Positions 2,776 through 51,299 of a stretch of 64,000 bases of DNA are shown here, one piece after another. How positions within the stretch are numbered: position 1 is the stretch's first letter; each line of letters starts with the position of its first letter. Below the pieces are notes generated by a model. That model was given only the letters and a program-made list of their open reading frames with translations, was not told where the DNA came from and made no database searches. Location of the stretch: the NCBI GenBank assembly GCA_029858565.1, contig JAOUEV010000002.1, positions 96,001-160,000 on the forward strand, in the 5' to 3' direction. A program made the position numbers and the translations under genes. The stretch is from Nitrospirota bacterium (lineage in GTDB: Bacteria; Nitrospirota; UBA9217).

Positions 2776-4131
2776 TCAGGACGTGATGCCGTACTGTTTT
2801 ATCTTTCTCATGAGCGTTGAATAATCGATATCGAGTATTGCCGCAGCCTTCTTCTTGTTGCCCTTGGTGGCTCCGAGGGTCCGTTGAATGGCCTGTTTCT
2901 CGATTTCCGAAAGGCTTTGATCGGCATGTTCGTCCGGCAGCGGCTGTCCGGGAACAGCGTGTTCAGCGGCAATGAGGAACTCGATCCGCTCGGGCATGAT
3001 GATGTCGCCTGCGGAAAGAAGCACTGCCCGCCTCATGACGTTTTTCAGCTCCCTGATGTTTCCCGGCCAGGGATACTCTCTAAGGAGTTTTTCCGCGGCC
3101 CCGGAGATCCCCCGGGACTGTTTTTTCAGCTCCGTTGCCGCCTCATTGCAGAATCGTTGCGCCAGGAAAGGGATGTCTTCGGTCCGCTCCCTGAGCGGCG
3201 GTATGACGATCATGAATTCGCCGAGCCGGAAGAACAGGTCCTCGCGGAATTTTTTTTCCGCCACGGCCTGCTTGAGGTTCGTATTGGTCGCGGCGATGAT
3301 CCGGGCGTTTATATCCAACGGTTGGGTGCTTCCAAGGGGATAGCCTTTTTTCTCCTCCACCACCCGGAGCAGTTTGCTCTGCACGAAGGGGGACATGTTC
3401 TGCACTTCGTCGATGAGCAGGGTGCCGCCGCCGGCAAGCTCGAACAGGCCCCGTTTCTTCTTTTCAGCGCCGGTGAACGCCCCTTTTTCAAAACCAAACA
3501 GCTCGCTCTCAACCAGGGTCTCCGGTATCGCGCCCATGTCAACCGTCATGAAGGGGCCTTTTTTCCGCGCGCTCAGGTTGTGGATCAGGTTTGCTATATA
3601 CGATTTGCCGGTCCCTGTTTCTCCCTGGATGATGATCGAAAAATCGCTCCAGGCGACCTGGTGTATCTGTTCGATGACTTTCTTTATGAGCGGACTCTTC
3701 CCCAGCAGCCACTCCAGGGATTCTTCCATCTCCGTGTTCAATCGCCGGACTTTATTTTCCAGTTCCCGTTTTTCCAGCGCCTTGGTCAGCGTGATGATGA
3801 GATAATCGAAATCAGGCGGCTTGAGCATGAAATCATTTGCCCCGAGCTTGATGGCTTCGACCGCGGTCGGCACATCGCCGTGCGCAGTAATAATGATGAT
3901 CGGCATGGAGGGGTCGATCTTTCGTATTTCGCGCAACGTATCGAATCCGTCCATGCCCGGCATTTTCAGGTCGAGGAGCGCGAGGTCGGTCTTCATTGTC
4001 CGGACGAGGTCCAGGGCTTCATGGCCGCTGGAGGCCTCGATGGGGAAGAAACCCTTTGTCTTCAGGATCTCAGCCAGGATCTGCCGAATTCTCGAATCAT
4101 CATCGATAATGAGTATTTTATACGTGGTCAT
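2776..4131 (-). CDS. Sigma54-dependent response regulator (NtrC/AtoC family: REC-AAA+-Fis HTH)
   Basis: REC domain (ILIIDDD, DLKMPGMDG), GETGTGKS, ESELFG, GAFTGA, WPGNIREL and a C-terminal HTH. Confidence 0.95.
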   Translation of the reverse strand: MTTYKILIIDDDSRIRQILAEILKTKGFFPIEASSGHEALDLVRTMKTDLALLDLKMPGMDGFDTLREIRKIDPSMPIIIITAHGDVPTAVEAIKLGANDFMLKPPDFDYLIITLTKALEKRELENKVRRLNTEMEESLEWLLGKSPLIKKVIEQIHQVAWSDFSIIIQGETGTGKSYIANLIHNLSARKKGPFMTVDMGAIPETLVESELFGFEKGAFTGAEKKKRGLFELAGGGTLLIDEVQNMSPFVQSKLLRVVEEKKGYPLGSTQPLDINARIIAATNTNLKQAVAEKKFREDLFFRLGEFMIVIPPLRERTEDIPFLAQRFCNEAATELKKQSRGISGAAEKLLREYPWPGNIRELKNVMRRAVLLSAGDIIMPERIEFLIAAEHAVPGQPLPDEHADQSLSEIEKQAIQRTLGATKGNKKKAAAILDIDYSTLMRKIKQYGITS

Positions 4132-4515
4132 TGGACGGGTAACGAAAACCGGCATCTCATGCGACCGGACCTTTAAGCGTTCCTGCTAACAGAAGCATAA
4201 TAGAGGCGAATGGAAAAGGCAAGTCCTGAATGCGCAATTGTCGATCGCCTGAAAAAACCACGGCGGGGCCTTGTCCGGACGGGATCCCGATGCCCCCTGC
4301 AAAACATTCATGTATTGCGGAAACGGAGGTGAAACCGCGCGGGAGAGGGGGTGTCCCGGATCTATGAAAATTGATCACAAGGCTTTTATTTTGCTGTATA
4401 ATGACCGGCGAGGACGTGAACGAGAAGACCATCGGACCGGGCCACGCGCAGGAGGCTTGGGCGGGAACGAATCTGAAGGCGCTTTGCCGCGGCGGTGAAA
4501 GGACGTGCGAAGGAC

Positions 4516-10764: not shown

Positions 10765-10849
10765 TGACAGCGGACATGCGGTGACAGCGGACATGCGGTG
10801 ACAGCGGACATGCGGTGACAGCGGACATGCGGTGACAGCGGACATGCGG
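10765..10849. repeat. Tandem repeat, 5 exact copies of 17 bp TGACAGCGGACATGCGG
   Basis: Copies start at 10765, 10782, 10799, 10816 and 10833 with no spacers; a degenerate copy lies just upstream. Confidence 0.97.
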
Positions 10850-10853
10850 TGCC

Positions 10854-10882
10854 TTGCTTTCCCTGGGCTATTTTGGTATTCT
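10854..10882 (+). promoter_or_regulatory. Putative sigma70 promoter of the kinase gene
   Basis: TTGCTT-17 bp-TATTCT with a TG extended -10. Confidence 0.4.
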
Positions 10883-10891
10883 GCCGTCATC

Positions 10892-13060
10892 ATGAACCAT
10901 GATGAACCACAGGTGGTGAAGCGGGTGAGCTTCAAGGGAGTGCTGTTCCTTGCGGCTTTTGTTATCCTGACCGCGGCAGCCATCGTCCTGCAGATCCGCT
11001 TTCGCGGATTCGGGGGCCCGCTTTCGGACAACCTGCTCATTCTGATCCTGATCAACGCTAATTTCCTCCTCCTGGCAGCCGTCATATTCATGATCGGCAG
11101 GAGCCTCTGGAAGCTTTCAGCGGAACGCAGAAGCAAAGTCCTGGGAGCGAAGTTCCGCACCCGCCTGGTGGCCGCCTTTGTGAGCCTTTCGTTCATCCCG
11201 ACGGTGCTCCTGTTTGTCATCGGCAGCGGCATCTATACCCGCGGCATGGAGCGTCTTTTCAGTCTCCGGCTCGAGAACACCCTGCAGGAATCGGTTTCGG
11301 TGTCTCAGGCCTTTTATGATCATTTGACCGGCCAGGCACGGGGATTCTCCCGGCAGATCAGCGGGCAGCTGACCGAGGAACGGATGGTGGCCCGGTTCGA
11401 ACCCGCGGTGCTTCGCGACTATCTGACACGGAAGTCGCAGGAATACGGCATCGGAGCGGTCGAACTCTACGGAGAGAACCGCAGACTGCTCACATCGGTC
11501 GTGACGTCCCAGTTCCCAGCCCGGACATTCTCCGGAGCCGACCCGGGACTTGTCGCTGCTGCTTTTGAGGCAAAGGAGGCGACGGACAGGACGGACCTCG
11601 GAAGAAAGGGAGAGATCGTGCGTGCCGCCGCTCCGCTCTACGGGGTCGAGACCGGATCAACGGTGGTCGGCGCTGTGGCCGTGAGCTATTATGTTTCCTC
11701 GAGCCTGACCAGCAAGATCGATGAGATCCGCGCCGGGTACATAGAATACCGGTCGGCATTCAAGAATAAGGAACTGCTCAAGCTGTCCTATCGGCTCGGC
11801 TTTCTGGCGGTTATGCTCACACTGGTTCTGGCTGCCATCTGGGTCGCCCTTCGGGTTGCGGCGGGCATCACCGTTCCGATCAGAAAGCTTGCCGAGGGGA
11901 CCGTCGAGGTTGCGCGGGGAAACCTGGATTACCGGATCGACGATCCGTCAGGCGACGAGGTCGGTCTGCTGGTGGGATCCTTCAACCGGATGACGGCAGA
12001 TCTGAAGCATTCCAGCGAGCAGCTCCGCCAGGAAGTATCCAACCGCGAGATCATCCTGACGACCATTGACGCGGGTGTCGTGTCCCTTGACCGAAGCGGC
12101 AGGATCACCACGATCAATCCCGCTGCATCAAGGATCCTCGGTGTGGTATCCGAAGACCTGCTCGGACGGCGGTATGATGACGCTTTCGGATTCATTGATC
12201 TCAAACCGATCCGCAGACTGTTCCGGAAGCTGGAGGAAGGTCATGGACGGACCGAGGAAGAGCTCACGCTGTCGGTCCGGGGGAGGACCCTCACCCTTCG
12301 GATGCGCGTGTCCACGCTTCGGGACAGCGCCGGAACGCTGATGGGGTCCGTGATCACCTTTGATGACCTGACCGAGTTGCTGCGCGCGAAGAAGGCTGAG
12401 ACCTGGCAGGACGTGGCGCGCAAGATAGCTCACGAAGTGAAGAACCCGCTTACCCCTATCAAGCTGTCCGCTGAACGCCTCCGGAAGAAATATCTGGAAC
12501 GTTCGCCGGATTTCGACCGGGTCTTCGACGAGTCGAGCCAGACGATCATCCAGCAGGTCGATGGCCTGAAGGGACTCCTGGACGAGTTCTCCGAATATGC
12601 GCGGATGCCGCGGCCCAATCCGGCGCCTCAGGCGCTGGGGCCGGTCGTGGACAGCGTTGTGAAGCTCTACGACGGTATGCATAAAGGGATACAATTCCGG
12701 CAGGAGATACCGCAAGGGCTACCCGACCTGCCGATTGATCAGGAACAAATGAAACGGGTGTTCATCAACCTTGTCAAGAACGCAATTGAGGTCATGGACC
12801 AGGGTGGTACGATCGGCATCACGGCGCAGGCAGATGCGGCGGGAAACACCATTCGTATCGATGTGTCCGATGACGGCCCCGGTATCTCCGAGGAGGACGT
12901 GGTCCGCCTCTTCGAACCGTATTTTTCGCGGAAGAAAAAGGGTGGTGGCCTCGGGCTGGCCATTGTTGAGCGCATCGTCGCCGATCACAACGGAACGATC
13001 CGTGCCGAGCGGAACCATCCTCAGGGGGCCAGGTTCATCATTGAGTTGCCCGTGAAGTAA
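10892..13060 (+). CDS. NtrY-like sensor histidine kinase (TM-HAMP-PAS-HisKA-HATPase)
   Basis: WQDVARKIAHEVKNPLTPIKLSAERL H-box, NLVKNAIE, DDGPG, GLGLAI; HAMP segment DEVGLLVGSFNRM. Confidence 0.92.
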   Translation: MNHDEPQVVKRVSFKGVLFLAAFVILTAAAIVLQIRFRGFGGPLSDNLLILILINANFLLLAAVIFMIGRSLWKLSAERRSKVLGAKFRTRLVAAFVSLSFIPTVLLFVIGSGIYTRGMERLFSLRLENTLQESVSVSQAFYDHLTGQARGFSRQISGQLTEERMVARFEPAVLRDYLTRKSQEYGIGAVELYGENRRLLTSVVTSQFPARTFSGADPGLVAAAFEAKEATDRTDLGRKGEIVRAAAPLYGVETGSTVVGAVAVSYYVSSSLTSKIDEIRAGYIEYRSAFKNKELLKLSYRLGFLAVMLTLVLAAIWVALRVAAGITVPIRKLAEGTVEVARGNLDYRIDDPSGDEVGLLVGSFNRMTADLKHSSEQLRQEVSNREIILTTIDAGVVSLDRSGRITTINPAASRILGVVSEDLLGRRYDDAFGFIDLKPIRRLFRKLEEGHGRTEEELTLSVRGRTLTLRMRVSTLRDSAGTLMGSVITFDDLTELLRAKKAETWQDVARKIAHEVKNPLTPIKLSAERLRKKYLERSPDFDRVFDESSQTIIQQVDGLKGLLDEFSEYARMPRPNPAPQALGPVVDSVVKLYDGMHKGIQFRQEIPQGLPDLPIDQEQMKRVFINLVKNAIEVMDQGGTIGITAQADAAGNTIRIDVSDDGPGISEEDVVRLFEPYFSRKKKGGGLGLAIVERIVADHNGTIRAERNHPQGARFIIELPVK

Positions 13061-20224: not shown

Positions 20225-20500
20225 ACGGCTTTTTATTTCGTTTGAAATGCGCAATAGTTGTCGTACATAAGTCCCTATCGGACGGCAGATTAGGATGAAC
20301 TTGGCTAGTTATTGTTGAGGAACAAAATTATTAGGTGTTTTTTTTATTAAATTTCATGGCATTATAAAAAAATTGCTTTGAGCATTATAAGTCTAGCATG
20401 TTTGAAAACCAACAAGGCTTTTGAGCGATAACACTCAAAATAAGTCATTGGTGTCTTGTAATATAAAGCTAATATATTGATATTTAAAGAATGCCTATGC

Positions 20501-20516
20501 TGGTATATGAATTGCA
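20501..20516 (+). promoter_or_regulatory. Sigma54 promoter of the multiheme cytochrome operon
   Basis: TGGTATA-TGAA-TTGCA with correct GG/GC spacing, 75 bp upstream of ATG 20591, within an AT-rich intergenic region. Confidence 0.65.
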
Positions 20517-20590
20517 AAGTATATTAATTGAAAAAGTAATGTATATAAGCTTGGAAATCTATTAAACATATTGATTTTTAAGGAGAAGCG

Positions 20591-21391
20591 ATGGCCACTT
20601 GCAATAGATTCACGAAAACCAATCCCTTTATCTCATTGCTTGCGCTTGGCTTGGTTTGTGTATGTTTTGCTGCTCCGGTTGATGCGCTGACAATCGTCGG
20701 TAGCAAGCATGATTTTACATCGACTGCCTCGGGCACGAACAATTTCGCGGATAATTTCTTTGTGCCGGATCCGGCAACGGGATTCCCAACGCCGATCGAT
20801 CAGGTCTGCGTTTTCTGTCATACGCCTCACCATGCAGCGCTCGGCGCAGCCGCCCCTCTGTGGAACAGGACCTCGTCGCCTCCTGATGCGACGTATACAT
20901 TCAAAATGTATACAAGCGAGTCCTTCACGTATGGTCCTGTTGGCGGTCCCACGGGCATCAGCGCCTTGTGCATGAGCTGCCATGATGGTGTATCGTCTAT
21001 CGCGGTGAGCACGCTTCTGAACCCCCCGGGAGACGCGACGCCCGATCAGGTCACTACATCGATGTCCTCCAATGGTGCAATAGGTGCGGTGTATAATGGT
21101 GATCCTCTTACGAATGGATGGGGCGCGAACCTTGGTAATATTGACCCCTTGTTCCCGGGAACCAAGATCATAGACCTGAGCAACGATCATCCGATTTCAT
21201 TCGTCTATCCGACCAGTGCTTCGGGCATCTATCCTTCTACTTCGATAGATACTCGTCTCCGTCTCTTTGGTGCTAGCAAGGACATGGTCGAGTGTGCGAC
21301 CTGTCATTTGGTGCACGACAACCAGTACGAGCCTTTCCTGGCAATGCCGAACAACGGCAGCCAGATGTGTCTATCCTGTCATCAAAAATAG
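20591..21391 (+). CDS. omcE: OmcE-like secreted tetraheme cytochrome c
   Basis: Signal peptide; SKHD...DQVCVFCHTPH...PLWNR...CMSCHDG...DLSNDHP...ECATCH.VHDN...PFL...GSQMCLSCHQK. Motif order matches Geobacter OmcE as I recall it. Confidence 0.8.
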   Translation: MATCNRFTKTNPFISLLALGLVCVCFAAPVDALTIVGSKHDFTSTASGTNNFADNFFVPDPATGFPTPIDQVCVFCHTPHHAALGAAAPLWNRTSSPPDATYTFKMYTSESFTYGPVGGPTGISALCMSCHDGVSSIAVSTLLNPPGDATPDQVTTSMSSNGAIGAVYNGDPLTNGWGANLGNIDPLFPGTKIIDLSNDHPISFVYPTSASGIYPSTSIDTRLRLFGASKDMVECATCHLVHDNQYEPFLAMPNNGSQMCLSCHQK

Positions 21392-21472
21392 ATCCGGAAC
21401 TGCAGCCATCTGTAGTCGGAAATATTTATGAAGAATTATTTAAGAAGAGTGAACGCGGCCTCGGAGGTGGGT

Positions 21473-24214: not shown

Positions 24215-24292
24215 TTCATGATCGTGACCAGCATGAACATGAATGGAATTAAAAGATTGATACGGCGTACTCTGCAAGAAGGAGCGGTGACT

Positions 24293-27200
24293 ATGAAGAA
24301 ATCTACTCTACTTACGATTTCAATTCTGATTATGCTGTTCGGCATGCTGATTGCCGTGCGGGACGTCGCGGCACTCGATGCCCCGCATAACGCGAACGAC
24401 GTATCTCGGTCGATCACCTGCTCCACGTGCCACGTTTCTCCATTGGGACCGACCCCGACGTGGAAAACAATCCCGACGACCACGGACAATACCTATACAA
24501 ACAATCTTTGTACAAGCTGTCACGCGAGCGGCAAGCTCACGACCAGCAAGTATGAGGATATTAAGACCCACTCTGCGGCGAACACGGGAAGCACCCGGTG
24601 GGGCGGTGGCTGGACGGTTGAGTGTCGTGTCTGCCATCATGCCCATAACCAGGCGCAGCAGACCACGTTCTATTCAGATGCTAATAATAATGTGCTGACC
24701 GGTACGGTGGCGGCGCTGACGTCGTCGGTATCTGCGACCATGTCCACGCTTACTGCGTCCGCGGGGTCGATGGGAACCGATGGTTACGTTGGTTACCTTC
24801 TTATCCCGAATACCGCATATCCTACGATCATGTATCGTGTTATAGCCAATGACGCGACGAAGTTTACCGTGAAAGGTGCTATTAACCTGGCTCGTACGGC
24901 AGTGGGAAAGACCTGGGCACTGCGCTACGGCAAAATGGTGAAAACGCAAATTGCCTATACGAACCCGACTTCGGTGAATGCCTCGGTCAAGTTCTACAAT
25001 AATGCAGGCAACAATTCCTTTGCAGAAACCGCGAGCCCATCAACATCCCTTTGCATGGTCTGTCATACCCAGACCAAGCATTTCAAGAATGACGGAACAT
25101 TTGAGACTGCAGGTCATCCGGCAGCTGTCGGAACGGCCTGCACTTCCTGCCATAAACATAATACGGGCTTCAAGGCAAGCGGATGTAATGGCTGTCACGG
25201 CCAGAGCGGATCGACCGGCGCGCCTCTTGTTGCCGGTGATCTTGTCTCGCCAGCAACCGGCCACGCCGAAGGCGCACATCTGCGGCATGCGGTGACCCTG
25301 TCTCTGAGTTGTGCTGTCTGTCACGCTGGAAATACCATGCCTGCGCTCGACAGCGAGATAACCATGTCGTTCAGCGACGCGGCAGCAGGTGGAGCATATC
25401 AGGGCACTGCTCTCAACGCTCCTTACACCTATAGCGCCAATGTCACCCTGGGCGGCACGCAAACCTGTTCCTCTTTATATTGCCATAGCTCGGGTCAGAG
25501 TGCCACGGGTGGTTCGCTTGCCGGCGGAGACTACAAGTCAGTGAACTGGACAGGAGCCGGCCTGAACTGCGGCAGCTGCCACGTTGATATGGATGCAAGC
25601 GCATCGGCAACTGGCAGCCATATTAAGCACGCACAGGATAAGGCCATTGCTTGTGCGACCTGCCATGATGGATACACAGAAACGTCAACGGCCGCGGCAA
25701 CGCACGCAAATGCCTCGATCAATCTGAGCTTCAGCGGTAGGGCTGCTGGCTCGACATACTCCCAGGGAAACTCCCATGCTGTGCAGAACGGATACGGCCA
25801 GTGTTCAACGAACGATTGCCATAGCACCGGCCAGGGTTCCGATGGCAGTTCGTCCGGCATTACCTATGCGTCTCCGACGTGGGGCGGAACGGTGAATTGC
25901 AGCTCCTGCCACAAGAACATGGATGCTGATGCGACCGCACCGGGCAGCCATGTGAAGCACGCGCAGAGCGCGGCGATTGCCTGCGCCACCTGTCACAACG
26001 GATACACCGAGACCACCGCAGCCGTGGCAACCCATGACGACGGCACGGTGGACATGAGCTTCAGCGGTCCGGGAGACGGCACGTTCTACACCGGCGGTAC
26101 GACGAGCGGCAACTACGCGCTCGGCGGCGGTTACGGTTCTTGCTACACCAGCTCCTGCCACAGCTCGGGCCAGTCCGCCACGGGTACGGCCTCGCCGCTG
26201 ACCTATGGTTCACCGGTATGGGGCGGTACCTTGGACTGCGGTTCCTGCCACACGAACATGGATACTGATGCGACCGCACCGGGCAGCCACGTGAAGCATG
26301 CCCAGAGCGCGGCCATCGCTTGCGCCTCCTGTCACAGCGGTTACACTGAGACCACGGTTGCGGTTGCAACGCATAATAACTCGACAGTCAACGTGACGAT
26401 GGCGACCGGCTTCTACACCGGCGGCACAACGAGCGGCAACAACGCGCTCGGCGGCGGCTATGGTTCCTGCTACACCAGCTCCTGCCACAGCTCGGGCCAG
26501 TCAGCCACGGGTACGGCCTCGCCGCTGACCTATGGTTCTCCGGCATGGGGAGGTACACTGGACTGCGGCTCCTGCCATAAGAACATGGATACTGATGCGA
26601 CCGCACCGGGCAGCCACGTGAAGCATACCCAGAGCGCGGCCATCGCTTGCGCAACCTGTCACAACGGTTACACCGAGACCTCGGTTGCCGCGGCATCGCA
26701 TAACAACGGCACGGTGGATATGAGCTTCAGCGGGACGGGTGCCGGGACGTTCTACAGCGGCGGCACAGTGAGCGGCGACAACGCGCTCGGCGGCGGCTAC
26801 GGTTCCTGCTACACCAGCTCCTGCCACAGCTCAGGCCAGTCAGCGACGGGTACGGCATCACCGTTGACCTACGGCTCTCCTGCGTGGGGCGGAGCGCTGG
26901 ATTGCGGCTCCTGCCACAAGAACATGGATACGGATGGAACTGCGCCGGGAAGCCACGTTGGCCATGCACAGACAGCGGCGATTGCGTGCGCAACCTGCCA
27001 CAGCGGGTACACCGAGACGACGGTTGCGGCTGCAACGCATAATAACTCGACAGTCAACGTGACGATGTCGACCGGCTTCTACAGCGGCGGCACGGTTTCG
27101 GGTGACAATGCGCTGGGCGGCGGTTATGGAACCTGTTTCACAACGAACTGCCATGGCTCATCCTCACCCGTCTGGGGCACGAACACCACGAATGCTTCCT

Positions 27201-28174
27201 GTACGAAGTGCCATGGTGTTTCCGGCGCAACCCCTGCGCAGTATACCGCGGATAACAATATAGCGGCGCCTGGATATGTTTCTGTCGCTCCGGTCGGTAC
27301 CGGTCGCGCAACATCTGGTGCGACAGCTGCGACAGATCCGAAGGTCGGAGCTCATAACGCACACCTTAAGGGCGTGAGCAACTATTCGGATCCCATTGCC
27401 TGCAGCGCCTGCCACAATACGTCATCAGGGCACATGGATGGTTCCGGCACACTGACATTCAGCGGTTTGTCTACATCGAACGGCGCCGCTGCAAATTATA
27501 GCGCGCCGAATTGTTCAACAACCTACTGTCATTTCGGTAAATCGATCAATTTGTACTCGCCGGCAGTTTCGAGCGCTACAGTGACCTGGAATGATACGGC
27601 TTACCTGAGCGGCACACCGAGCATCGGCGGAGACTGCGCGAAGTGCCATCTCTCACCGCCTTCGGCAACAGGGACCCATGCAGGCTACAGCACCTTCACA
27701 GACTGCAACACCTGTCATCCTCATGTGAGCACAGACGGTACGTTCAACAACAAATCGCTGCATATCAACGGCGTAGTCGAAGCCGCAAGCGGTTGCGACG
27801 GCTGCCACGCATATCCGCCTGCAATAGGCGACGGCAAGGCGTATAAGGGTTCCGCGCTGCTCGGTAAAGGAGCGCATACATCCCATGTCAACTATCTCCT
27901 CCTGAGGACCGGATTGACCCTTAGCGCTAAGGGTGATACTTATACCGGTGCAACGGTTGCGGCGATCTGCGGCGTTTGTCACAACACGTCAGCCGATGCC
28001 TTCCATAAGAATGGCAATGATGTCCGTGACCTCCTGATCCCATCGTCTTACCTCTTTGGTACGGGGACGCCGACATATAACGGGAATCCCGCGACTACGA
28101 CCAATAAGAACTGCTCGAATGTCAGCTGCCATTTCAATGTAACTCCGCTGTGGCAGCAGACCGCGGGTCAGTAA
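24293..28174 (+). CDS. Giant secreted multiheme cytochrome c with CxxxxCH/CxxCH modules (~31 heme motifs)
   Basis: Hand count of 23 CxxCH and 8 CxxxxCH; signal peptide; Ser/Thr/Gly/Ala-rich. Confidence 0.93.
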   Translation: MKKSTLLTISILIMLFGMLIAVRDVAALDAPHNANDVSRSITCSTCHVSPLGPTPTWKTIPTTTDNTYTNNLCTSCHASGKLTTSKYEDIKTHSAANTGSTRWGGGWTVECRVCHHAHNQAQQTTFYSDANNNVLTGTVAALTSSVSATMSTLTASAGSMGTDGYVGYLLIPNTAYPTIMYRVIANDATKFTVKGAINLARTAVGKTWALRYGKMVKTQIAYTNPTSVNASVKFYNNAGNNSFAETASPSTSLCMVCHTQTKHFKNDGTFETAGHPAAVGTACTSCHKHNTGFKASGCNGCHGQSGSTGAPLVAGDLVSPATGHAEGAHLRHAVTLSLSCAVCHAGNTMPALDSEITMSFSDAAAGGAYQGTALNAPYTYSANVTLGGTQTCSSLYCHSSGQSATGGSLAGGDYKSVNWTGAGLNCGSCHVDMDASASATGSHIKHAQDKAIACATCHDGYTETSTAAATHANASINLSFSGRAAGSTYSQGNSHAVQNGYGQCSTNDCHSTGQGSDGSSSGITYASPTWGGTVNCSSCHKNMDADATAPGSHVKHAQSAAIACATCHNGYTETTAAVATHDDGTVDMSFSGPGDGTFYTGGTTSGNYALGGGYGSCYTSSCHSSGQSATGTASPLTYGSPVWGGTLDCGSCHTNMDTDATAPGSHVKHAQSAAIACASCHSGYTETTVAVATHNNSTVNVTMATGFYTGGTTSGNNALGGGYGSCYTSSCHSSGQSATGTASPLTYGSPAWGGTLDCGSCHKNMDTDATAPGSHVKHTQSAAIACATCHNGYTETSVAAASHNNGTVDMSFSGTGAGTFYSGGTVSGDNALGGGYGSCYTSSCHSSGQSATGTASPLTYGSPAWGGALDCGSCHKNMDTDGTAPGSHVGHAQTAAIACATCHSGYTETTVAAATHNNSTVNVTMSTGFYSGGTVSGDNALGGGYGTCFTTNCHGSSSPVWGTNTTNASCTKCHGVSGATPAQYTADNNIAAPGYVSVAPVGTGRATSGATAATDPKVGAHNAHLKGVSNYSDPIACSACHNTSSGHMDGSGTLTFSGLSTSNGAAANYSAPNCSTTYCHFGKSINLYSPAVSSATVTWNDTAYLSGTPSIGGDCAKCHLSPPSATGTHAGYSTFTDCNTCHPHVSTDGTFNNKSLHINGVVEAASGCDGCHAYPPAIGDGKAYKGSALLGKGAHTSHVNYLLLRTGLTLSAKGDTYTGATVAAICGVCHNTSADAFHKNGNDVRDLLIPSSYLFGTGTPTYNGNPATTTNKNCSNVSCHFNVTPLWQQTAGQ
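25895..27155 (+). repeat. Intragenic tandem repeat of alternating 339-bp and 327-bp three-heme units
   Basis: Anchor TCCTGCCACAGCTC recurs at 26153, 26480 and 26819 (spacing 327, 339). Protein unit is CxSCH-NMDxDATAPGSHVKH-CAxCH-...-CYTSSCH. Confidence 0.9.
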
Positions 28175-28308
28175 GGGAGGGTGTGGACGTGTATACCGTA
28201 CTGAGGTATAATAGCCAGCCTGCATGCAAGGCTGCAGTTCATAATCAGAAACGCTCAGCCGCATCCGTGGAATCGACCGGCAGAGCTCTTACAGAAGGCG
28301 AGGTACTT

Positions 28309-30852
28309 ATGATGAAGAAAGCTTGTAACGATAGCGCGGTAAGCCGGCTCACATGGCTGGGGCTTGCGGTAGTCCTGATCATGCTGATCTCCGCATTCGT
28401 TGCTGTACCTCAGGCAACAGCCGGAACGTATACGGTAGATACGTGCGGCGATTGCCACGCATACTCCACGGGAACGTTCACGGACGGTTCGGCCCGGAAT
28501 AATCCGGCCGGCGCCTTCCCGGGCTCGCATCAACAGCATGTGACGACCTACCAGATGGCCTGCACGGTCTGTCACATCAACAACGGAGCTAATTTTGCCC
28601 ATCGGAACGGCAATGTTGATATAAATGCCTCGATCAGCGGAGGCACATACAGCAAAGGTTCATTCTCCCAGGTTAATACGACATCTCTGGGTCGGTGCAC
28701 TAACGTCTCTTGCCATAGCAACGGAACCCCGCTGAACGGTACAGCAACATTCGCAACAGCGACCTGGGGTTCTCCGGCAACAGGTGCTTGCGGAACCTGC
28801 CACGGCGTCCTGGCTTCCAGCGCTCCGACCTCAACGCATCACAGCAAACACGTGGGAGCTGCTGCGGGATATCAAAACGCCTGCGGTTGGTGCCATAGCA
28901 GCACGGTGAACATGACAGCGAATTCAACCGTTCAGGCGACGGTCACTTCAACTACGCTGCATGTCAACGGAATCAAGAACGTCTCCTTTGAAACCACCAC
29001 GAACGCCGGGGCGAACGCCTACGGAAGCGGGCAGGCCTATAGCTGCACCAACCTCTACTGTCATAGCCAGGGGAACACGTTCACATCACCCTATACAGCG
29101 CCGAACACGACAGCGCTCTGGACATTGGCTGCAGGTTCGCTGAACTGCAACAGCTGCCATGGTTCGACCGTAGCAACAACCACTCGCGGTAATGGCAAGC
29201 CTGAGTACGCCAACGGCACGCCGAAGAAGAACAGCCATGCGGGCCATTTCCCGTGGAACACGCTCCAGTCCTGCCAGATCTGCCATTCGGCAACGACCAC
29301 GGACGGGGTGAGCGTTACGAACAAAGCGAACCATGTGAAGAAGTCCTACAACGTGGGTTCCTACACGGGAGGCGGTGCCTGGAACACCTTGGCAAACTTC
29401 ACCTATACCTATAATGCCAATGGCAGCACCTGTAATACCAACCAGTGCCATGCTGGGCTGAACGCACAGTGGGGCTCGACAGGAGCCGGCTCCGGCAGCG
29501 AATGGAACTGCATTACCTGCCACTCCAGCTCGTTCAAGAAGTTCCTCGGCACGGGAACGATCCGGCAGGTTGTCGGTACGACCAACGCCGCTGATTTCAA
29601 CATGTCAACGATCGGGAACGGCGCAGGTTCGCGTCACCTGTACGGTGCTTCGACAATCGTGAAATGGGACTGCATCATCTGTCACGAGGAAGGTCAGGCA
29701 ACGGGCGCTCCTGGAAGGGTTGACTGGCAGAACCATAATGACTTGGGCGGCTTGATCCATCTGCGGAACGTGGACACGATCGATCCTGCGAACTCGGGCT
29801 GGGCGATTAACAACAAGTCCTGGACGACGACCGATTATCAGAGTATGGACGAGTTCTGCGTCTCTTGCCATGATTCCAACGGGGCAAGCGCGATCGCGGT
29901 GAATGCTGCGAACAACGGACTCTTCACCGGCACTGCTGCCTGGAACACCTATCGTGCAGGCTGGAAATCAATGGCAGGAACTTTCCCCGGCAGGGCAGCC
30001 CTGGCACCGTTCAACTCCACGGACTGGCGTTCTGGTTATCTGGTTGCATCCACCTCGTCAGTAGGCGCCGGCGAGGGCAGAGCAAAGATCACTGACGTGA
30101 AGACCCAATTCTACGCAGGTACTGCAGGCAACTGGGCGACAACGAACTACAACGGCAATCCGTCGCAGCACGCGGTGCTCGGTACCCGGTACGGCCGGGC
30201 CTGGAACACCTGGACCGCCGCAGCCTGGTCGAGCTACTTCATGAAGAAGTCTCGTGCGAACATCAACGCCATGCGTGAGACCGCGCTACTCTCATGCGCT
30301 GACTGTCACGTGCTCGATGCTCCAGGTGTGGGCGGCAATGCTCATAGCGGTACAGTGAAATACATGCTGTCTACAGTCACTAGTGATGGCATCTGCACAA
30401 AGTGTCATTCGACAACTGCCTACGCTGCGGCGAGCGCTATATCCCGGTGGAATCACAGCTACTCAAGAGGCGGTTACAATGCCTATGGTCTTTCCAACGC
30501 AGCAGGTACGGGTTCTCAGCTCGCCTGTATGATGTGCCATGCTGGCTGGCAGATAGAGTCAACGGTCTCGAGACAGAGGAGCTACGGCGGCATCCATGGA
30601 TCCTGGACGACCTTCTATCCCATGAGCACGGTAGGAAGTGGAAACCTGACGACCTACCGGTTCTTCCCCGGGACCTGGAGAAAGCATTCATATAGTGCTG
30701 ATAACCAGTGGGGCTCCATGACAGCTTCGACCTGTTACTTCGGGGCTACAACCGATAATAGCGGATTTGCGAGCTGTACGTCACATGGAAGCGCGACCGG
30801 CAGAACTGGAACGACGTACACGCCGACGTACACGCGTCCGGTCAAGTACTAA
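28309..30852 (+). CDS. Large secreted multiheme cytochrome c (~15 heme motifs)
   Basis: Hand count of 12 CxxCH and 3 CxxxxCH; N-terminal signal/TM; extra C-terminal CX13CxxH. Confidence 0.92.
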   Translation: MMKKACNDSAVSRLTWLGLAVVLIMLISAFVAVPQATAGTYTVDTCGDCHAYSTGTFTDGSARNNPAGAFPGSHQQHVTTYQMACTVCHINNGANFAHRNGNVDINASISGGTYSKGSFSQVNTTSLGRCTNVSCHSNGTPLNGTATFATATWGSPATGACGTCHGVLASSAPTSTHHSKHVGAAAGYQNACGWCHSSTVNMTANSTVQATVTSTTLHVNGIKNVSFETTTNAGANAYGSGQAYSCTNLYCHSQGNTFTSPYTAPNTTALWTLAAGSLNCNSCHGSTVATTTRGNGKPEYANGTPKKNSHAGHFPWNTLQSCQICHSATTTDGVSVTNKANHVKKSYNVGSYTGGGAWNTLANFTYTYNANGSTCNTNQCHAGLNAQWGSTGAGSGSEWNCITCHSSSFKKFLGTGTIRQVVGTTNAADFNMSTIGNGAGSRHLYGASTIVKWDCIICHEEGQATGAPGRVDWQNHNDLGGLIHLRNVDTIDPANSGWAINNKSWTTTDYQSMDEFCVSCHDSNGASAIAVNAANNGLFTGTAAWNTYRAGWKSMAGTFPGRAALAPFNSTDWRSGYLVASTSSVGAGEGRAKITDVKTQFYAGTAGNWATTNYNGNPSQHAVLGTRYGRAWNTWTAAAWSSYFMKKSRANINAMRETALLSCADCHVLDAPGVGGNAHSGTVKYMLSTVTSDGICTKCHSTTAYAAASAISRWNHSYSRGGYNAYGLSNAAGTGSQLACMMCHAGWQIESTVSRQRSYGGIHGSWTTFYPMSTVGSGNLTTYRFFPGTWRKHSYSADNQWGSMTASTCYFGATTDNSGFASCTSHGSATGRTGTTYTPTYTRPVKY

Positions 30853-30882: not shown

Positions 30883-30916
30883 AGCGGAGGCTCATATGAG
30901 CCTCCGCTTTTTTTTT
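30883..30916 (+). terminator. Rho-independent terminator closing the cytochrome operon
   Basis: Perfect palindrome AGCGGAGGCTCATATGAGCCTCCGCT followed by a T run, 30 bp after the stop codon. Confidence 0.9.
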
Positions 30917-47546: not shown

Positions 47547-48989
47547 ATGATGCATTCAACAGTACAATCGAAACAGCAGGCCATCCTGCCGGTGGTTCTG
47601 CTGGTCATGTTCCTCTCCGGCGCCTGTACGCAGCGACCTGCAGGGACAGAACCCCTGCGCCTGCTCGGGACCGATCCCCTCACCGCAGTGTCCGTGACCG
47701 GGTACCACGAGGTCCTTGTAACCTGGATGCAAAGGGGCCTTCGGAACATGACGGCGGTCCATGCGGGGCCGAAGGACGGACTTGCATTCGTCCCGCCTGC
47801 CCGGGTGAAGACGATCAAGGATCTCCTGCAGAACGGGGGCTCCGGCACGGATGTCGGGGACCTGGTCACTGCCGACAACTATCTGTTCCTGGCCCAGCGC
47901 CTCGGTCTGATACGCCGCGTCTTCTGGGTCATTCCCTACCACCATGTCGACTATATCAATGCAGAACTGCGCGTCCAGGCCTTTCTCCGCAACGAGACAT
48001 CCCATTTCAGTCCGCAGGATGTGGGCTCCATGCGGTTCCGGAACGGTTGCGTCTCCGGGACCCTTGCCGGCATCGAGGTGCATGTCTGCAGTCCGACGAC
48101 TCTGCCGCGCCTCGCAGAACCGGCCGTTGTCACGATCGATCCCGGGTTCTTTCCGCTCTATGCGGCGAACCGGGGCCCGAGCGGTCTCGGCGCGACGAAG
48201 GAGTTCTTCGACCTCATGGCAATTAAGCGGATCGGCACCCGGGCAGTGTCGGTCGCCGCTTCCCCGGAGTTCCAGGGGATGCGGGGGTATCTGTCAGAAG
48301 AGATCGTCAGCATCCTGAAGGACCCGGAAATCCTCCAGAGCACGCAGCCGCCTGACCTCTGGGCCCTCCGTGAGCAGGCTGACGGGATGCTGACGCGCGG
48401 GGACGTGAAGGAGGCGGCCGGGCATCTGGAAAAGCATGGTGCTGCGTTTCCCGCCGATCCCTATTTGCATCTGATGCGGTGGACGGCCCAGGCCCTTCTG
48501 TCGAAGAGGGCGTCGGCGCTCAATGCGCTGACGGCTCTCTGCGTGAAGGATCCCGTGCTGTGCAGCGGCATCGTCGATGCCGGCGTCCTGCTCCGGGAAC
48601 AGGGCGACCTGGCCGGAGCGGAGGAATTCCTGAGGAAAGCGGTCTCCCTGCAGCAGCTGCGTCCCGGCCGCGCGCGACGGGAGTACGCGGTCACCCTCTA
48701 CCAGGCAGGAAAGTATGCCGATGCGCAGCGGGAGGCGTCACCCCTGGTTGCCGATCCGGCATACACCGTCGCGGGCGGTCTGCTGCTGGGAGATTGCGCG
48801 TACGCATTGCAGCAGAACGACGAGGCCGTGCGCCGGTACGAAGGAGCGCTCAGTTCCTACCGGGAGGCCGGAGGATACCGACTGAGCAAACGGGAGCAGG
48901 AAAGCATCAGCAGGCTGAAGTCGCTCTATCAGCGGAGGAACGACAAGCGCGGCCTGCGGACCCTGGAGGGAACACCTGCCTTTGAATAG
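47547..48989 (+). CDS. Lipoprotein with a degenerate UPF0489-like domain plus TPRs (paralogue 3)
   Basis: Lipobox LSGAC; HEVLVTWMQRGLRNMTAVH...ADNYLFLAQRLGLIRRVFWVIP...EPAVVTIDPGFF; C-terminal TPRs. Confidence 0.65.
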   Translation: MMHSTVQSKQQAILPVVLLVMFLSGACTQRPAGTEPLRLLGTDPLTAVSVTGYHEVLVTWMQRGLRNMTAVHAGPKDGLAFVPPARVKTIKDLLQNGGSGTDVGDLVTADNYLFLAQRLGLIRRVFWVIPYHHVDYINAELRVQAFLRNETSHFSPQDVGSMRFRNGCVSGTLAGIEVHVCSPTTLPRLAEPAVVTIDPGFFPLYAANRGPSGLGATKEFFDLMAIKRIGTRAVSVAASPEFQGMRGYLSEEIVSILKDPEILQSTQPPDLWALREQADGMLTRGDVKEAAGHLEKHGAAFPADPYLHLMRWTAQALLSKRASALNALTALCVKDPVLCSGIVDAGVLLREQGDLAGAEEFLRKAVSLQQLRPGRARREYAVTLYQAGKYADAQREASPLVADPAYTVAGGLLLGDCAYALQQNDEAVRRYEGALSSYREAGGYRLSKREQESISRLKSLYQRRNDKRGLRTLEGTPAFE

Positions 48990-50463
48990 CGAACTCGAAA
49001 AGGGGACGCCCGCCGCGCCCCGCTCTTTCCGGGAGGTTGCCGAAGGGATCTATCGTTCCTTCCGGCGGCCGCGGGTAACGGTCATCATCATTTCGGCGCT
49101 GCTTGCGCTGTTCCTCTCCGGGCTGCTCATTCCCCAGAAAACGCTCTTCACATCACGGGAACAGTTCGAGCAGTGGAACGCGGACCATCCGCTCCTGTCG
49201 CTGGTGATCACTGGCCTCAAGCTCAATGAGATCTATGTTGCGCCGGTCACCGTGGTCTTCCTGGCGCTCTTTTTCCTGAACCTCCTGGCGGTCCTTGCGC
49301 ACCGGGTCCCCCATGTGCTCAGGCGGGCATATGTCATCGACCGGCGCAGCGCCGTCGAAGGCCTTGAGAAGGTGAAGAACGACCCACAGGCGCACACCAT
49401 CGTCCTGCGCGGGACAACGCAGGGTGCGGCGGGGGTGGCCGCAGGACAGGCTGCTTCGTTCTTCCGGAAGCGGTTCTGGTCCGTGATGACCGCTGATGAC
49501 GGCCGTTCGTTCATCGCCGTCCGGAACCGTCTGTCCCCGTTGGGATTCCTGCTGTTCCATGTCAGTTTTTTTCTGTGTCTTGCCGGCGGGCTTCTCGTGA
49601 TGTACACGCGGTTTTCCGGCAACCTGCTGCTGACCGAGGGGGAGGAATTCCAGTCGAACATCGCGCAGTTCCGGAAGATCAGCCGGGAGCCGAAGATATT
49701 CCATGCGCTTCCGGAGCTCAGGATCGCCTTGCGCAAGGTGTTCCCCACGTATGAAGGCAGCACCGGAACGGACCTGAAGGTCTCGATGCAGATACAGTAT
49801 TTCAAGGAAGCCTTCGAAGCGGTCAGCAGGATCAATGAGCCGATCAGAAAAGGGGCGATCTCGATCCTGCCGGAGAACATCGGGATCTCGCCCCTCTTTG
49901 TCCTGCACGGGCCGGGCGGGGCCGAGGCGTCGGGGGGCTATTTCATCCTGAACGTGTTGAAGGGCGAGGAGGACTCGTTCCAGTTTCCCGACCTTCCCTA
50001 TACCGTCTTTGTGCGGTTCTACCCGGATTTTACCGAAGAGGCAGGCAAGCCGGTCAGCAGGTCACTGGACATAAGAAATCCGGTCTTCCATATCCGGGTG
50101 CAGGAGGGGGAGCGGACGCTTGCCGAGGGCTATCGGAGGCCCGGAGAGGGGATCCGGTTCGGAGCGCATGAGCTCTCCTGCAGCGAGATCCGGTACTGGG
50201 TCGACCTGCTCGTGGTGCGCGAGTACGGGGACACGCCGATCGCGGTGGGATTCATCCTCGGGGCCGTGGGCCTGATCATGCGGCTCATCTTTTACCAGAA
50301 GACCGTTCGCGTGCACATCGAGGAACTCGATGATGCGACCGTCCTGTACGTCGGCGGAAACGGTGAATACTATCAGCATACGTTCCGGGAGGAACTGGAG
50401 CGATTGGCCGCAGCCTTGACCAATGCTCTCCAGCAGACCCGGGAGGGGGGGACGGCACTATGA
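48982..50463 (+). CDS. resB: Cytochrome c biogenesis protein ResB/CcsB
   Basis: GLLIPQ, GFLLFHVS (conserved His), LTEGE, INEP, VREYG plus a TM; adjacent to ccsA. Confidence 0.88.
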   Translation: MNSELEKGTPAAPRSFREVAEGIYRSFRRPRVTVIIISALLALFLSGLLIPQKTLFTSREQFEQWNADHPLLSLVITGLKLNEIYVAPVTVVFLALFFLNLLAVLAHRVPHVLRRAYVIDRRSAVEGLEKVKNDPQAHTIVLRGTTQGAAGVAAGQAASFFRKRFWSVMTADDGRSFIAVRNRLSPLGFLLFHVSFFLCLAGGLLVMYTRFSGNLLLTEGEEFQSNIAQFRKISREPKIFHALPELRIALRKVFPTYEGSTGTDLKVSMQIQYFKEAFEAVSRINEPIRKGAISILPENIGISPLFVLHGPGGAEASGGYFILNVLKGEEDSFQFPDLPYTVFVRFYPDFTEEAGKPVSRSLDIRNPVFHIRVQEGERTLAEGYRRPGEGIRFGAHELSCSEIRYWVDLLVVREYGDTPIAVGFILGAVGLIMRLIFYQKTVRVHIEELDDATVLYVGGNGEYYQHTFREELERLAAALTNALQQTREGGTAL

Positions 50464-51299
50464 GCTGGATCGAACCGATTCTTGCGTGGGGGATCATCTA
50501 TCTGTATGCCATATGTTCGATCCTGCTGCTGACGGCGTTCGTCTTTGAGAAGGACCGCCTCCTCAGGCTGGTCCCCTACATCCTGGTCCCCGCGTTCGTT
50601 GCCCATACCGCGGTCTTCGTCGCGCGCTGGGTGCGGACCGGCTACTTCCCGGCGAACGGGGAGTTCGAGAACGCGATCAGCGGCGGCTGGTTCACCATCC
50701 TGTTGACCCTCGGCCTCTTCTTCCGGAAGAAGGAGCTCTCGGGCGTATCCCTCATCACGGTCCCGGTGACCCTGCTGTTTCTCGGCTACGGGATCATGAA
50801 GAATCCCGCGGCCCTTCCCCATGCTGCCACGCTGAAAAGCTCCTGGCTCGTCATTCACGTGCTCTTTGCGCAGCTTGCATTCGGGGCGTACCTGATCGCA
50901 TCCGGCTTCGGCGTGGTGTACCTCCTCAAGGAGAGCAAGACGCGAACGGGAGGGACCTCGCCGATCTATGACAAGCTGCCACAGCTTACGGTCATCGAGG
51001 AGCTCATGTTCAAGTTCGTGATCTACGGATTCATCGCTGACGCGATCATGATCGCCGCGGGAACGATCTGGGCAAAGGACCTCTGGGGCAGCTACTGGAG
51101 CTGGGACCCCGTCGAGGTCTGGTCACTGGCCTCGTGGCTCATCTACGGGCTCTCGATCCACCTGAAGGTGCAGATGGGCTGGCGGGGCCGCCGGCTGGCT
51201 TGGGTCTACGTGTTCGCGGTCCTCGGTATCATCATTACCTACTGGGGCGTGGACCTGTTCGTGAAGAACACCCAGCATGTCTTCGGTGTTCAGTCGTGA
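50460..51299 (+). CDS. ccsA: Cytochrome c synthase CcsA/ResC
   Basis: SWLVIHV, WWD domain WAKDLWGSYWSWDPVEVW, SIH, C-terminal QHVF. Confidence 0.95.
   Translation: MSWIEPILAWGIIYLYAICSILLLTAFVFEKDRLLRLVPYILVPAFVAHTAVFVARWVRTGYFPANGEFENAISGGWFTILLTLGLFFRKKELSGVSLITVPVTLLFLGYGIMKNPAALPHAATLKSSWLVIHVLFAQLAFGAYLIASGFGVVYLLKESKTRTGGTSPIYDKLPQLTVIEELMFKFVIYGFIADAIMIAAGTIWAKDLWGSYWSWDPVEVWSLASWLIYGLSIHLKVQMGWRGRRLAWVYVFAVLGIIITYWGVDLFVKNTQHVFGVQS

Follow-up and report, generated by a model that had tools for sequence, protein, structure and literature searches.

Whether a c-type cytochrome encoded outside Geobacter can build the kind of wire formed by OmcE is the question raised by a locus of an uncultured Nitrospirota bacterium. 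The locus lies in a stretch of 64,000 nucleotides (contig JAOUEV010000002.1 of assembly GCA_029858565.1, positions 96,001 to 160,000, forward strand), hereafter the window, whose own numbering is used for all positions given without a contig. A reading made from the letters alone (the sequence-only reading) had taken the gene at 20591 to 21391 for an OmcE-type, filament-forming tetrahaem cytochrome, possibly outside Geobacter, standing first in its operon and providing the major nanowire subunit, with extracellular electron transfer as the consequence. The OmcE type, the place outside Geobacter and the leading position in the unit were borne out by the analysis described in this article, while filament formation, the role of major nanowire subunit and extracellular electron transfer by the organism were inferences and are weighed here as such. 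The interpretation favored, with moderate confidence, is that of a Sec-exported, bis-His tetrahaem subunit of the OmcE family, belonging to a long clade and encoded first in a probably sigma-54-dependent unit of four genes, for which a head-to-tail polymer is the most likely state. The gene and the elements recognized within it are the following.

20591 to 21391, plus strand: coding sequence of the OmcE-family tetrahaem c-type cytochrome, 'long type', an open reading frame (ORF) starting with ATG, 266 amino acids (aa)
20591 to 20686, plus strand: predicted Sec signal peptide, residues 1-32, cleavage after VDA, without lipobox, read by eye
20708 to 20710, plus strand: His40 (in SKHD), N-terminal conserved distal-ligand His, invariant in 134 of 134 sequences
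20807 to 20830, plus strand: haem motif 1 (C73-H77) with distal His80, CVFCHTPH; C73, C76, H77 and H80 invariant
20969 to 20983, plus strand: haem motif 2 (C127-H131), CMSCH, from the motif scan and the 134-row alignment
21188 to 21190, plus strand: His200 (in SNDHP), conserved distal ligand, invariant in the 134 rows
21293 to 21316, plus strand: haem motif 3 (C235-H239) with distal His242, CATCHLVH, from the motif scan and the 134-row alignment
21368 to 21382, plus strand: haem motif 4 (C260-H264), CLSCH; H264 in at least 90% of sequences

All the features that had been quoted for this protein (four CxxCH motifs, SKHD, HTPH, SNDHP, VHDN and two loop strings) were found when the sequence was read. 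The CxxCH motifs start at residues 73 (CVFCH), 127 (CMSCH), 235 (CATCH) and 260 (CLSCH), and a motif scan of the 266-aa protein found no CxxxCH or CxxxxCH; SKHD occupies residues 38-41, HTPH 77-80, SNDHP 197-201 and VHDN 241-244, and the loop strings FFVPDPATGFPTP and GAVYNGDPLTNGWG correspond to residues 56-68 and 165-178. Across 134 homologues, eight Cys together with H40, H77, H80, H131, H200, H239 and H242 show no variation, and H264 is kept in at least 90% of them. Since these Cys and His vary little or not at all in 74 close homologues and in the 134 wider ones alike, the haem motifs are not a product of chance. The distal ligands H40, H80, H200 and H242 align with the OmcE His of KHD, HTPH, NDHP and VHDN, respectively. 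The protein has nine His in total and the ninth, H81, is not conserved, being replaced by Gly in 44 of the 74 close homologues. The proposal of extra loop insertions held for one part: there is a 13-residue insertion relative to OmcE at residues 49-61 (HMMER), and the second stretch turned out to be a clade-conserved motif and not a free loop, with G176, W177, N180 and G182 present in at least 67 of the 74 close homologues. Past the predicted signal peptide, L33 aligns with A24 of OmcE. A lipoprotein was considered and rejected, given the missing lipobox and the lack of conservation of Cys23 and Cys25 among the 74 close homologues. An antisense ORF at 20633 to 21190 (minus strand) is the usual shadow of the coding frame.

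Membership in the OmcE family was addressed both in sequence and in fold. Searched against all solved structures, the protein matched five sequences at E <= 10, two of them significantly: OmcE of Geobacter sulfurreducens (7TFS; E 1.1e-22, 84 bits, residues 33-266 aligned to 24-232) and the OmcE bundle of D. soudanensis (9YUQ; E 3.5e-19). The structure was modeled with AlphaFold2 from a 134-row alignment, whose rows were picked from 259 proteins with full-length matches favored, and the predicted model, which is without haems, reached a predicted local distance difference test (pLDDT) value of 88.2 and a predicted template modeling (pTM) score of 0.82. Foldseek returned 44 matches at E <= 10 and a single one at or below 0.001, which was again 7TFS (3.8e-11, template modeling (TM) score 0.74 by target and 0.57 by query). 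With VIA-align, residues 39-265 of the model were placed on 30-231 of the 7TFS chain with Z 15.1 and a root-mean-square deviation of 2.5 A over 182 of 202 residues, at 39% identity; among 48,161 representative chains Z values of 2 or more were given by OmcE (15.1), OmcS (4.0) and an S-layer undecahaem cytochrome (2.0), and by no others. The alignment to OmcE is thus strong at both levels, and since sequence homology, predicted fold and the full set of haem ligands agree, membership in the OmcE family is established as far as computation can establish it. The Pfam and NCBIfam models gave generic matches, with Paired_CXXCH_1 above its cut-off. An NrfH/NapC-type protein was rejected because the match to TIGR03153 covered no more than 36 residues and reached 25.1 bits, the cut-off being 134.2, and the DmsE and MtrC families were rejected on scores far under their cut-offs.

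Compared with its solved relatives, the protein stands closest to OmcE of G. sulfurreducens (GSU0618), in which four CxxCH and four other His occur in the order seen here and a short arm with K-H-D likewise comes after a signal peptide; the window cytochrome differs from it in being 34 residues longer, in the insertion mentioned above and in a clade-specific GWGANxGN region. The OmcE of D. soudanensis WTL (9YUQ) is a homologous tetrahaem subunit with the same conserved Cys/His set; its match is split in two stretches (64-178 and 195-266), marking it as more distant than 7TFS. In a published study of OmcE wires (PMC13712944), the bundling loops of the 9YUQ type are described as not conserved among OmcE homologues. 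OmcS (6EF8) is the second-best structural match, a weak one (Z 4.0, 147 residues), and differs in its six haems and 407 residues; in sequence it has no detectable similarity to the window cytochrome. According to another report, OmcS and OmcE have haem packing and inter-subunit His ligation in common (PMC9473688).

The host genome (3.9 Mb in 144 contigs, with 48 ORFs carrying three or more CxxCH) is assigned to Nitrospirota by its RpoB, which shares 88% identity with its counterpart in 'Nitrospirae bacterium GWC2_57_13' and 68-72% with many proteins named Nitrospirota, Nitrospira or Thermodesulfovibrionales. The sole named close homologue of the cytochrome, among 10 looked up, also belongs to a 'Nitrospirota bacterium', and the gene therefore lies outside Geobacter. 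Such a position is no longer surprising, since porin/propeller-linked OmcE homologues were reported from five phyla including Nitrospirota in a study that calls OmcE homologues 'widely distributed' and sorts them by context (PMC13712944).

Within Nitrospirota the long type has a narrow distribution. In a sample of 301 genomes that includes the host (G000), matches at E <= 1e-10 were present in 96 genomes and 61 of 121 genera. Only the family to which the window belongs has strong matches (E <= 1e-40, 40-56% identity, near full length), and these were found in 13 of its 63 genomes; outside this family the best match was 5.3e-33. The loci of nine of these 13 genomes were fetched for comparison of the neighboring genes. 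Two quick maximum-likelihood trees were computed, one with 98 rows and a second with 95 rows after two six-haem rows and one long-branch row had been removed, and in both the window protein and nine relatives form a clade with a Shimodaira-Hasegawa-like approximate likelihood ratio test (SH-aLRT) support of 98-99. The proteins of this clade are about 240-286 aa long and have eight His in seven of ten cases and nine in the other three, the extra His never being conserved.

The conservation extends beyond the cytochrome to the genes and signals around it, which in the window are arranged as follows.

20225 to 20590, no strand: AT-rich regulatory intergenic region upstream of the cytochrome gene, 366 bp, 30% GC (composition computed)
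20501 to 20515, plus strand: predicted sigma-54-type -24/-12 element TGGTATATGAATTGC, TGGTAT-N4-ATTGC, 90 nt upstream of the ATG
20580 to 20585, plus strand: Shine-Dalgarno AAGGAG, 5 nt before the ATG, from reading the sequence
21393 to 21420, plus strand: hairpin just past the cytochrome stop codon, followed by AAAUAUUUAU; -17.3 kcal/mol, z -3.7
21473 (likely start) to 24214, plus strand: secreted protein of 913-928 aa with an NHL propeller, two BACON-like domains and an FG-GAP propeller (Pfam)
24218 to 28174, plus strand: giant multihaem cytochrome, 1318 aa, 23 CxxCH and 8 CxxxxCH, matching TIGR01904 at 2.8e-46 in 7 stretches
28150 to 30852, plus strand: multihaem cytochrome, 900 aa, 12 CxxCH and 3 CxxxxCH, from library search and motif count
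30883 to 30908, plus strand: intrinsic terminator closing the four-gene unit, an 11-bp stem with 8 GC pairs followed by T8

The earlier claims of a strong ribosome-binding site and of a first gene in an operon were both sustained: AAGGAG precedes the ATG by 5 nt, the 366-bp intergenic region of 30% GC allows the cytochrome gene to be the first of a unit, and the first strong terminator downstream of it (30883 to 30908) comes after the fourth gene. The sigma-54-type element supports the same arrangement. The spacing and core of TGGTATATGAATTGC fit the -24/-12 consensus of sigma-54 promoters. Its form TGGTAT-N4-ATTGC has one exact match in the 64-kb window and recurs in eight of the nine relatives ahead of the orthologous start codon, at a distance of 72-145 nt, the ninth having GGGTAT-N4-ATTGC at -85; the element is therefore exact in 9 of 10 loci and its GG/GC core is kept in all 10. 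A stricter consensus has 13 matches in the whole genome, which encodes an RpoN scoring 440 bits, above cut-off, and the four-gene unit is, on these sequence grounds, probably sigma-54-dependent. A sigma-54 activator response regulator (2776 to 4155, minus strand) and an NtrY-like HAMP/PAS histidine kinase (10832 to 13060, plus strand) are encoded 7-16 kb upstream of the operon and are candidate regulators of this promoter. One of the 13 strict matches (C106:3436) lies upstream of an NHL gene and a gene for a fusion with an OmcE-like domain, and this second OmcE-related cluster may share the promoter type.

The hairpin behind the cytochrome gene was matched by 2 of 200 shuffles. It lacks a clean U-tract and no comparable hairpin was found after the gene in the nine orthologous loci (z -1.24 to +1.43), for which reasons a terminator behind the subunit gene was rejected for the clade; the hairpin is probably not a conserved attenuator either.

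The partner genes are conserved too. In all nine relatives the cytochrome gene is followed directly by a homologue of the NHL/BACON/FG-GAP protein (920-1,004 aa, 33-46% identity), and in eight of them one or more giant multihaem cytochromes come next (748-2,789 aa, 12-48 CxxCH), the ninth locus ending 848 nt past the propeller gene. The domains of the window's double-propeller protein were assigned by Pfam with 2.7e-14 for NHL, 1.9e-14 for BACON_2 and 8.4e-20 for FG-GAP, and the two cytochromes downstream have 31 and 15 haem motifs in total. The start of the double-propeller gene is most likely the ATG at 21473 (MKTVK...), which lies behind GGAGGTG, a ribosome-binding site that the orthologous loci have kept; a start at 21428, where the ORF opens with its first ATG, is improbable. 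Upstream of the cytochrome gene, a module of MacB-type ABC, FtrD-like and 371-aa proteins is found in the window and in one relative (G239).

Does the protein polymerise? In favor of it, His40 aligns with His31 of OmcE, which stands one residue past the first modeled residue of 7TFS, and is the candidate ligand to be given to the next subunit. Eight His for four haems is also the His count of the polymerising OmcE subunit (PMC13712944). A rather unlikely alternative is that the OmcE fold is used here without polymerisation, the protein being a soluble or surface-bound tetrahaem relay that is held on the double propeller and passes electrons between the periplasm and the giant cytochromes, so that the latter and not the tetrahaem protein would be the long-range conductors. 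The conserved partners, with 12 to 48 haems and 748-2789 aa, are long enough to act as wires, no beta-barrel was detected among the four operon proteins by family searches, and members of the OmcE-like superfamily greatly outnumber those found in nanowire clusters (PMC13712944). Against a relay, there are exactly eight ligand His for four haems, the N-terminal His sits on a short arm at the same spacing from the signal-peptide site as in OmcE, and the only solved proteins with the OmcE fold are filament subunits. A homodimer predicted with four haems scored 0.02, below the mark of 0.42, and counts neither for nor against assembly.

Under the preferred reading, that of a polymerising subunit, the steps following export can be proposed by analogy with OmcE. 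The haems would be attached to the exported subunit by a ResB/CcsB system encoded 18 kb downstream, after which the subunits would polymerise head to tail; one of the eight conserved His, probably His40, would complete a haem of the neighboring subunit, and this ligation in trans would give a continuous, insulated haem chain, presumably at the cell surface. The giant cytochromes may feed or terminate the chain, as electron input or terminus depending on the direction in which electrons flow, the double propeller may be a scaffold or an assembly factor, and the chain may be decorated by the adjacent PMT/TPR glycosylation island. The two genes of the haem-attachment system, from the family search of the window, are listed next.

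48982 to 50463: ResB
50460 to 51299: CcsB

The interval 31537 to 58410, in which they are found, also encodes two PMT-family transferases, two SGNH/GDSL hydrolases, B12-radical-SAM enzymes and several TPR proteins. It forms a glycosylation and haem-attachment neighborhood that recalls the surroundings of omcE in Geobacter.

Besides OmcE, the smallest omcE clusters of Desulfuromonadia encode a large beta-barrel, two multihaem cytochromes and two beta-propeller lipoproteins; these clusters are bordered by resB/ccsB on one side and, in freshwater genera, by 15-70 glycosylation genes on the other, and glycosyltransferase genes adjoin them (PMC13712944). Two Geobacter loci compared here have resB, ccsB, cytochromes of 8-10 haems, propellers of 364-385 aa, omcE and a barrel of 752-806 aa, and the ORFs past the barrel look transferase-like, as judged from their opening residues only. 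The window locus resembles this arrangement in its adjoining NHL-propeller gene, in the multihaem cytochromes of the cluster and in the ResB/CcsB and glycosylation genes nearby. It differs in that the partner propeller is a secreted NHL/BACON/FG-GAP fusion of 913-928 aa, whereas the Geobacter propellers have 364-385 aa and the canonical ones are lipoproteins; in that the cluster cytochromes are downstream TIGR01904-type giants of 31 and 15 haem motifs, whereas those of Geobacter have 8-10 haems and 328-338 aa and are encoded upstream; and in that a beta-barrel gene adjoins omcE in Geobacter, whereas none was found beside the window gene. A further trait, noted on the window's side, is the predicted sigma-54-type promoter. 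A similar arrangement to that of the window operon is seen in two Geobacteraceae loci (L027, 7157-13328, and L017), which encode an NHL multidomain protein of 906-913 aa and an OmcE-like tetrahaem cytochrome of 268-273 aa, together with a 20-haem cytochrome in L027. There the NHL protein is encoded upstream of the OmcE-like gene and matches that of the window over its N-terminal 245 residues only (26% identity, 1.3e-9), and the cytochromes fall in a different clade; the arrangement is analogous and not orthologous.

Several results weigh against the window protein being the nanowire subunit. The eight-His pattern is common to the whole superfamily (3,763 representatives, E <= 0.001) and therefore does not tell polymerising members from others. 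The backbone of the trees is unresolved, with inner branches below a support of 80 in 42 of 94 and 31 of 91 cases, so that orthology to OmcE proper, represented in the trees by a Geobacter protein scoring 215 bits against 7TFS, cannot be claimed. The published filter for a 'potential nanowire' demands a porin and a propeller near the OmcE homologue (PMC13712944). When the 635-aa barrel-like protein of the host, described below, and two barrels of Geobacter omcE clusters were used as tblastn queries, no copy was found on the window's contig (C41), the window included, at E <= 1e-4, a search that a diverged barrel could escape; with no porin found nearby, the window gene would fail that filter. 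Lastly, the host has a second OmcE-family gene at C131:19823-20491, whose 222-aa tetrahaem product matches 7TFS at 1.7e-23, as well as the window protein does, and 9YUQ at 2.5e-22, better than it does. The propeller of the Geobacter omcE cluster is also 34% identical (6.6e-63) to the NHL lipoprotein encoded beside this paralogue, as compared with 31% over 225 aa (1.3e-14) for the window propeller, and altogether the neighbors of the C131 gene fit the published nanowire cluster better than the window operon does.

This short paralogue is about 35-40% identical to the window protein, and neither of the two had a supported join to the OmcE stand-in in the two trees. It belongs to the same family and likewise has an NHL-propeller neighbor, and differs in its length of 222 aa and its nine His. 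Its cluster (C131:18582-25212; L006 1583-8213) encodes a TPR protein, the tetrahaem cytochrome, a 384-aa NHL lipoprotein, a SurA-like peptidyl-prolyl isomerase (PPIase) and a 635-aa barrel look-alike, and none of the strict sigma-54 matches in the genome lies just ahead of the cytochrome gene. The 635-aa protein has no Pfam hit; its Atlas look-alikes are large outer-membrane barrels, with a feature score of 0.98 to TIGR03016-type clusters and TM scores of 0.75-0.78, compared with 0.54-0.56 for the MtrB/PioB type. It is the only such barrel found in the genome.

It is accordingly conceivable, although improbable, that the short paralogue forms the main wire and that the window protein is a minor, specialised component at its tip or base or an adaptor by which that wire or its porin is coupled to the giant cytochromes. 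The C131 cluster has the canonical accessory set of propeller, PPIase and beta-barrel and its propeller is the best match to that of the Geobacter omcE cluster; moreover, in three relatives of one genus (G227, G239 and G135; loci L109-L114) both types share a strand and the long-type operon follows 13-20 kb downstream of the short-type cluster, a proximity that suggests joint action of the two. Set against this are the leading position of the long-type gene in its operon and its strong ribosome-binding site, which fit an abundant product, and the occurrence of the long type at E <= 1e-40 in 13 of the 63 genomes of the family. The His counts also tend to give the short type another task. It has been speculated that an OmcE-like, four-haem protein carrying nine His anchors the wire (PMC13712944), and if this idea holds, the short types, which have nine His, would be the anchor; eight are retained by the long type. 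In a comparison of four short-type proteins, the His numbers were 9, 9, 9 and 11; a conserved ninth His (in LWNH) occurs in the three short types of that genus, other members having LWNR, and the ninth His of the host's short paralogue is at another position. As an anchor signature of this kind H81 of the window protein was rejected because it is not conserved.

These observations allow an OmcE system split between two co-evolving paralogues to be proposed for this Nitrospirota family, in which the eight-His long type would polymerise and be produced from the sigma-54 operon along with a double propeller serving in assembly, the nine-His short type with its PPIase and barrel would be the porin anchor and the giant cytochromes would form the base or tip. 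This proposal is of still lower probability than a main wire made by the short paralogue; if true, it would provide the first genetic handle on the start, anchoring and termination of cytochrome wires.

The preferred reading, a polymer built from the window protein, matters for several reasons. OmcE-type wires have been solved only from Desulfuromonadia, and their secretion, anchoring and termination are stated as unknown (PMC13712944). The locus is a natural variant in a different phylum: the subunit gene is placed apart from the porin, its partners are a fused double propeller and giant cytochromes, a conserved sigma-54-type promoter precedes it, and genes for haem attachment and protein glycosylation are close by. 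In sections 7-9 and 12 of PMC13712944 and in the titles and abstracts of two further papers on OmcE and Nitrospirota, no description was found of a conserved operon with no porin detected nearby or of an NHL/BACON/FG-GAP fusion partner, nor of giant-cytochrome partners, a conserved sigma-54 element or a porin-linked paralogue alongside. Should the protein polymerise, wire formation would need no porin gene in the same operon, and uncultured Nitrospirota of sediment and groundwater would join the organisms that move electrons over long range. Should it not, the locus would mark the limit of what can be concluded from the OmcE fold alone, a useful mark, since homologues are being annotated as 'nanowires' by the thousand.

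The family is widespread. Among 2,591 candidates clustered at 90%, 1,523 proteins matched at E <= 1e-3; of the representatives at 50% identity, 3,763 matched at <= 1e-3, 1,755 at <= 1e-10 and 19 at <= 1e-30. A scan with one genome per species confirmed at least 578 of 599 pattern matches, and from the matches listed in it 80 loci were kept, which include Pseudomonadota, Acidobacteriota, Planctomycetota, Verrucomicrobiota, Bacteroidota, Nitrospirota, Thermodesulfobacteriota, Campylobacterota and Myxococcota. Among the matches listed, an NHL-propeller gene lay within 3 kb of the OmcE-like ORF in 71 of the 80 loci, in many phyla, and within the same distance a PPIase was found in 10, a cytochrome similar to the giant of the window in 8 and an NHL protein of at least 800 aa in 4.

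OmcE-like tetrahaem proteins beside NHL propellers were also seen in a metagenome-assembled genome of a Thermoplasmata archaeon (L030) and in Candidatus Frackibacter, Bacillota (L031); if the binning is right, the OmcE-like/NHL module crosses domains and types of cell envelope. In 45 of the 80 loci (L009-L088), from many phyla, ORFs of 450-1,023 aa begin with an OmcE-like tetrahaem domain and in most cases directly follow an NHL-propeller gene, and the host genome has an ORF of this fusion type at C106:4968-7046 (692 aa, 10 CxxCH). Elsewhere in the same genome (C76:37153-40530) two tandem NHL-propeller genes adjoin a gene for a 387-aa five-haem cytochrome, and both propellers match those of the Geobacter omcE clusters (33-34% identity).

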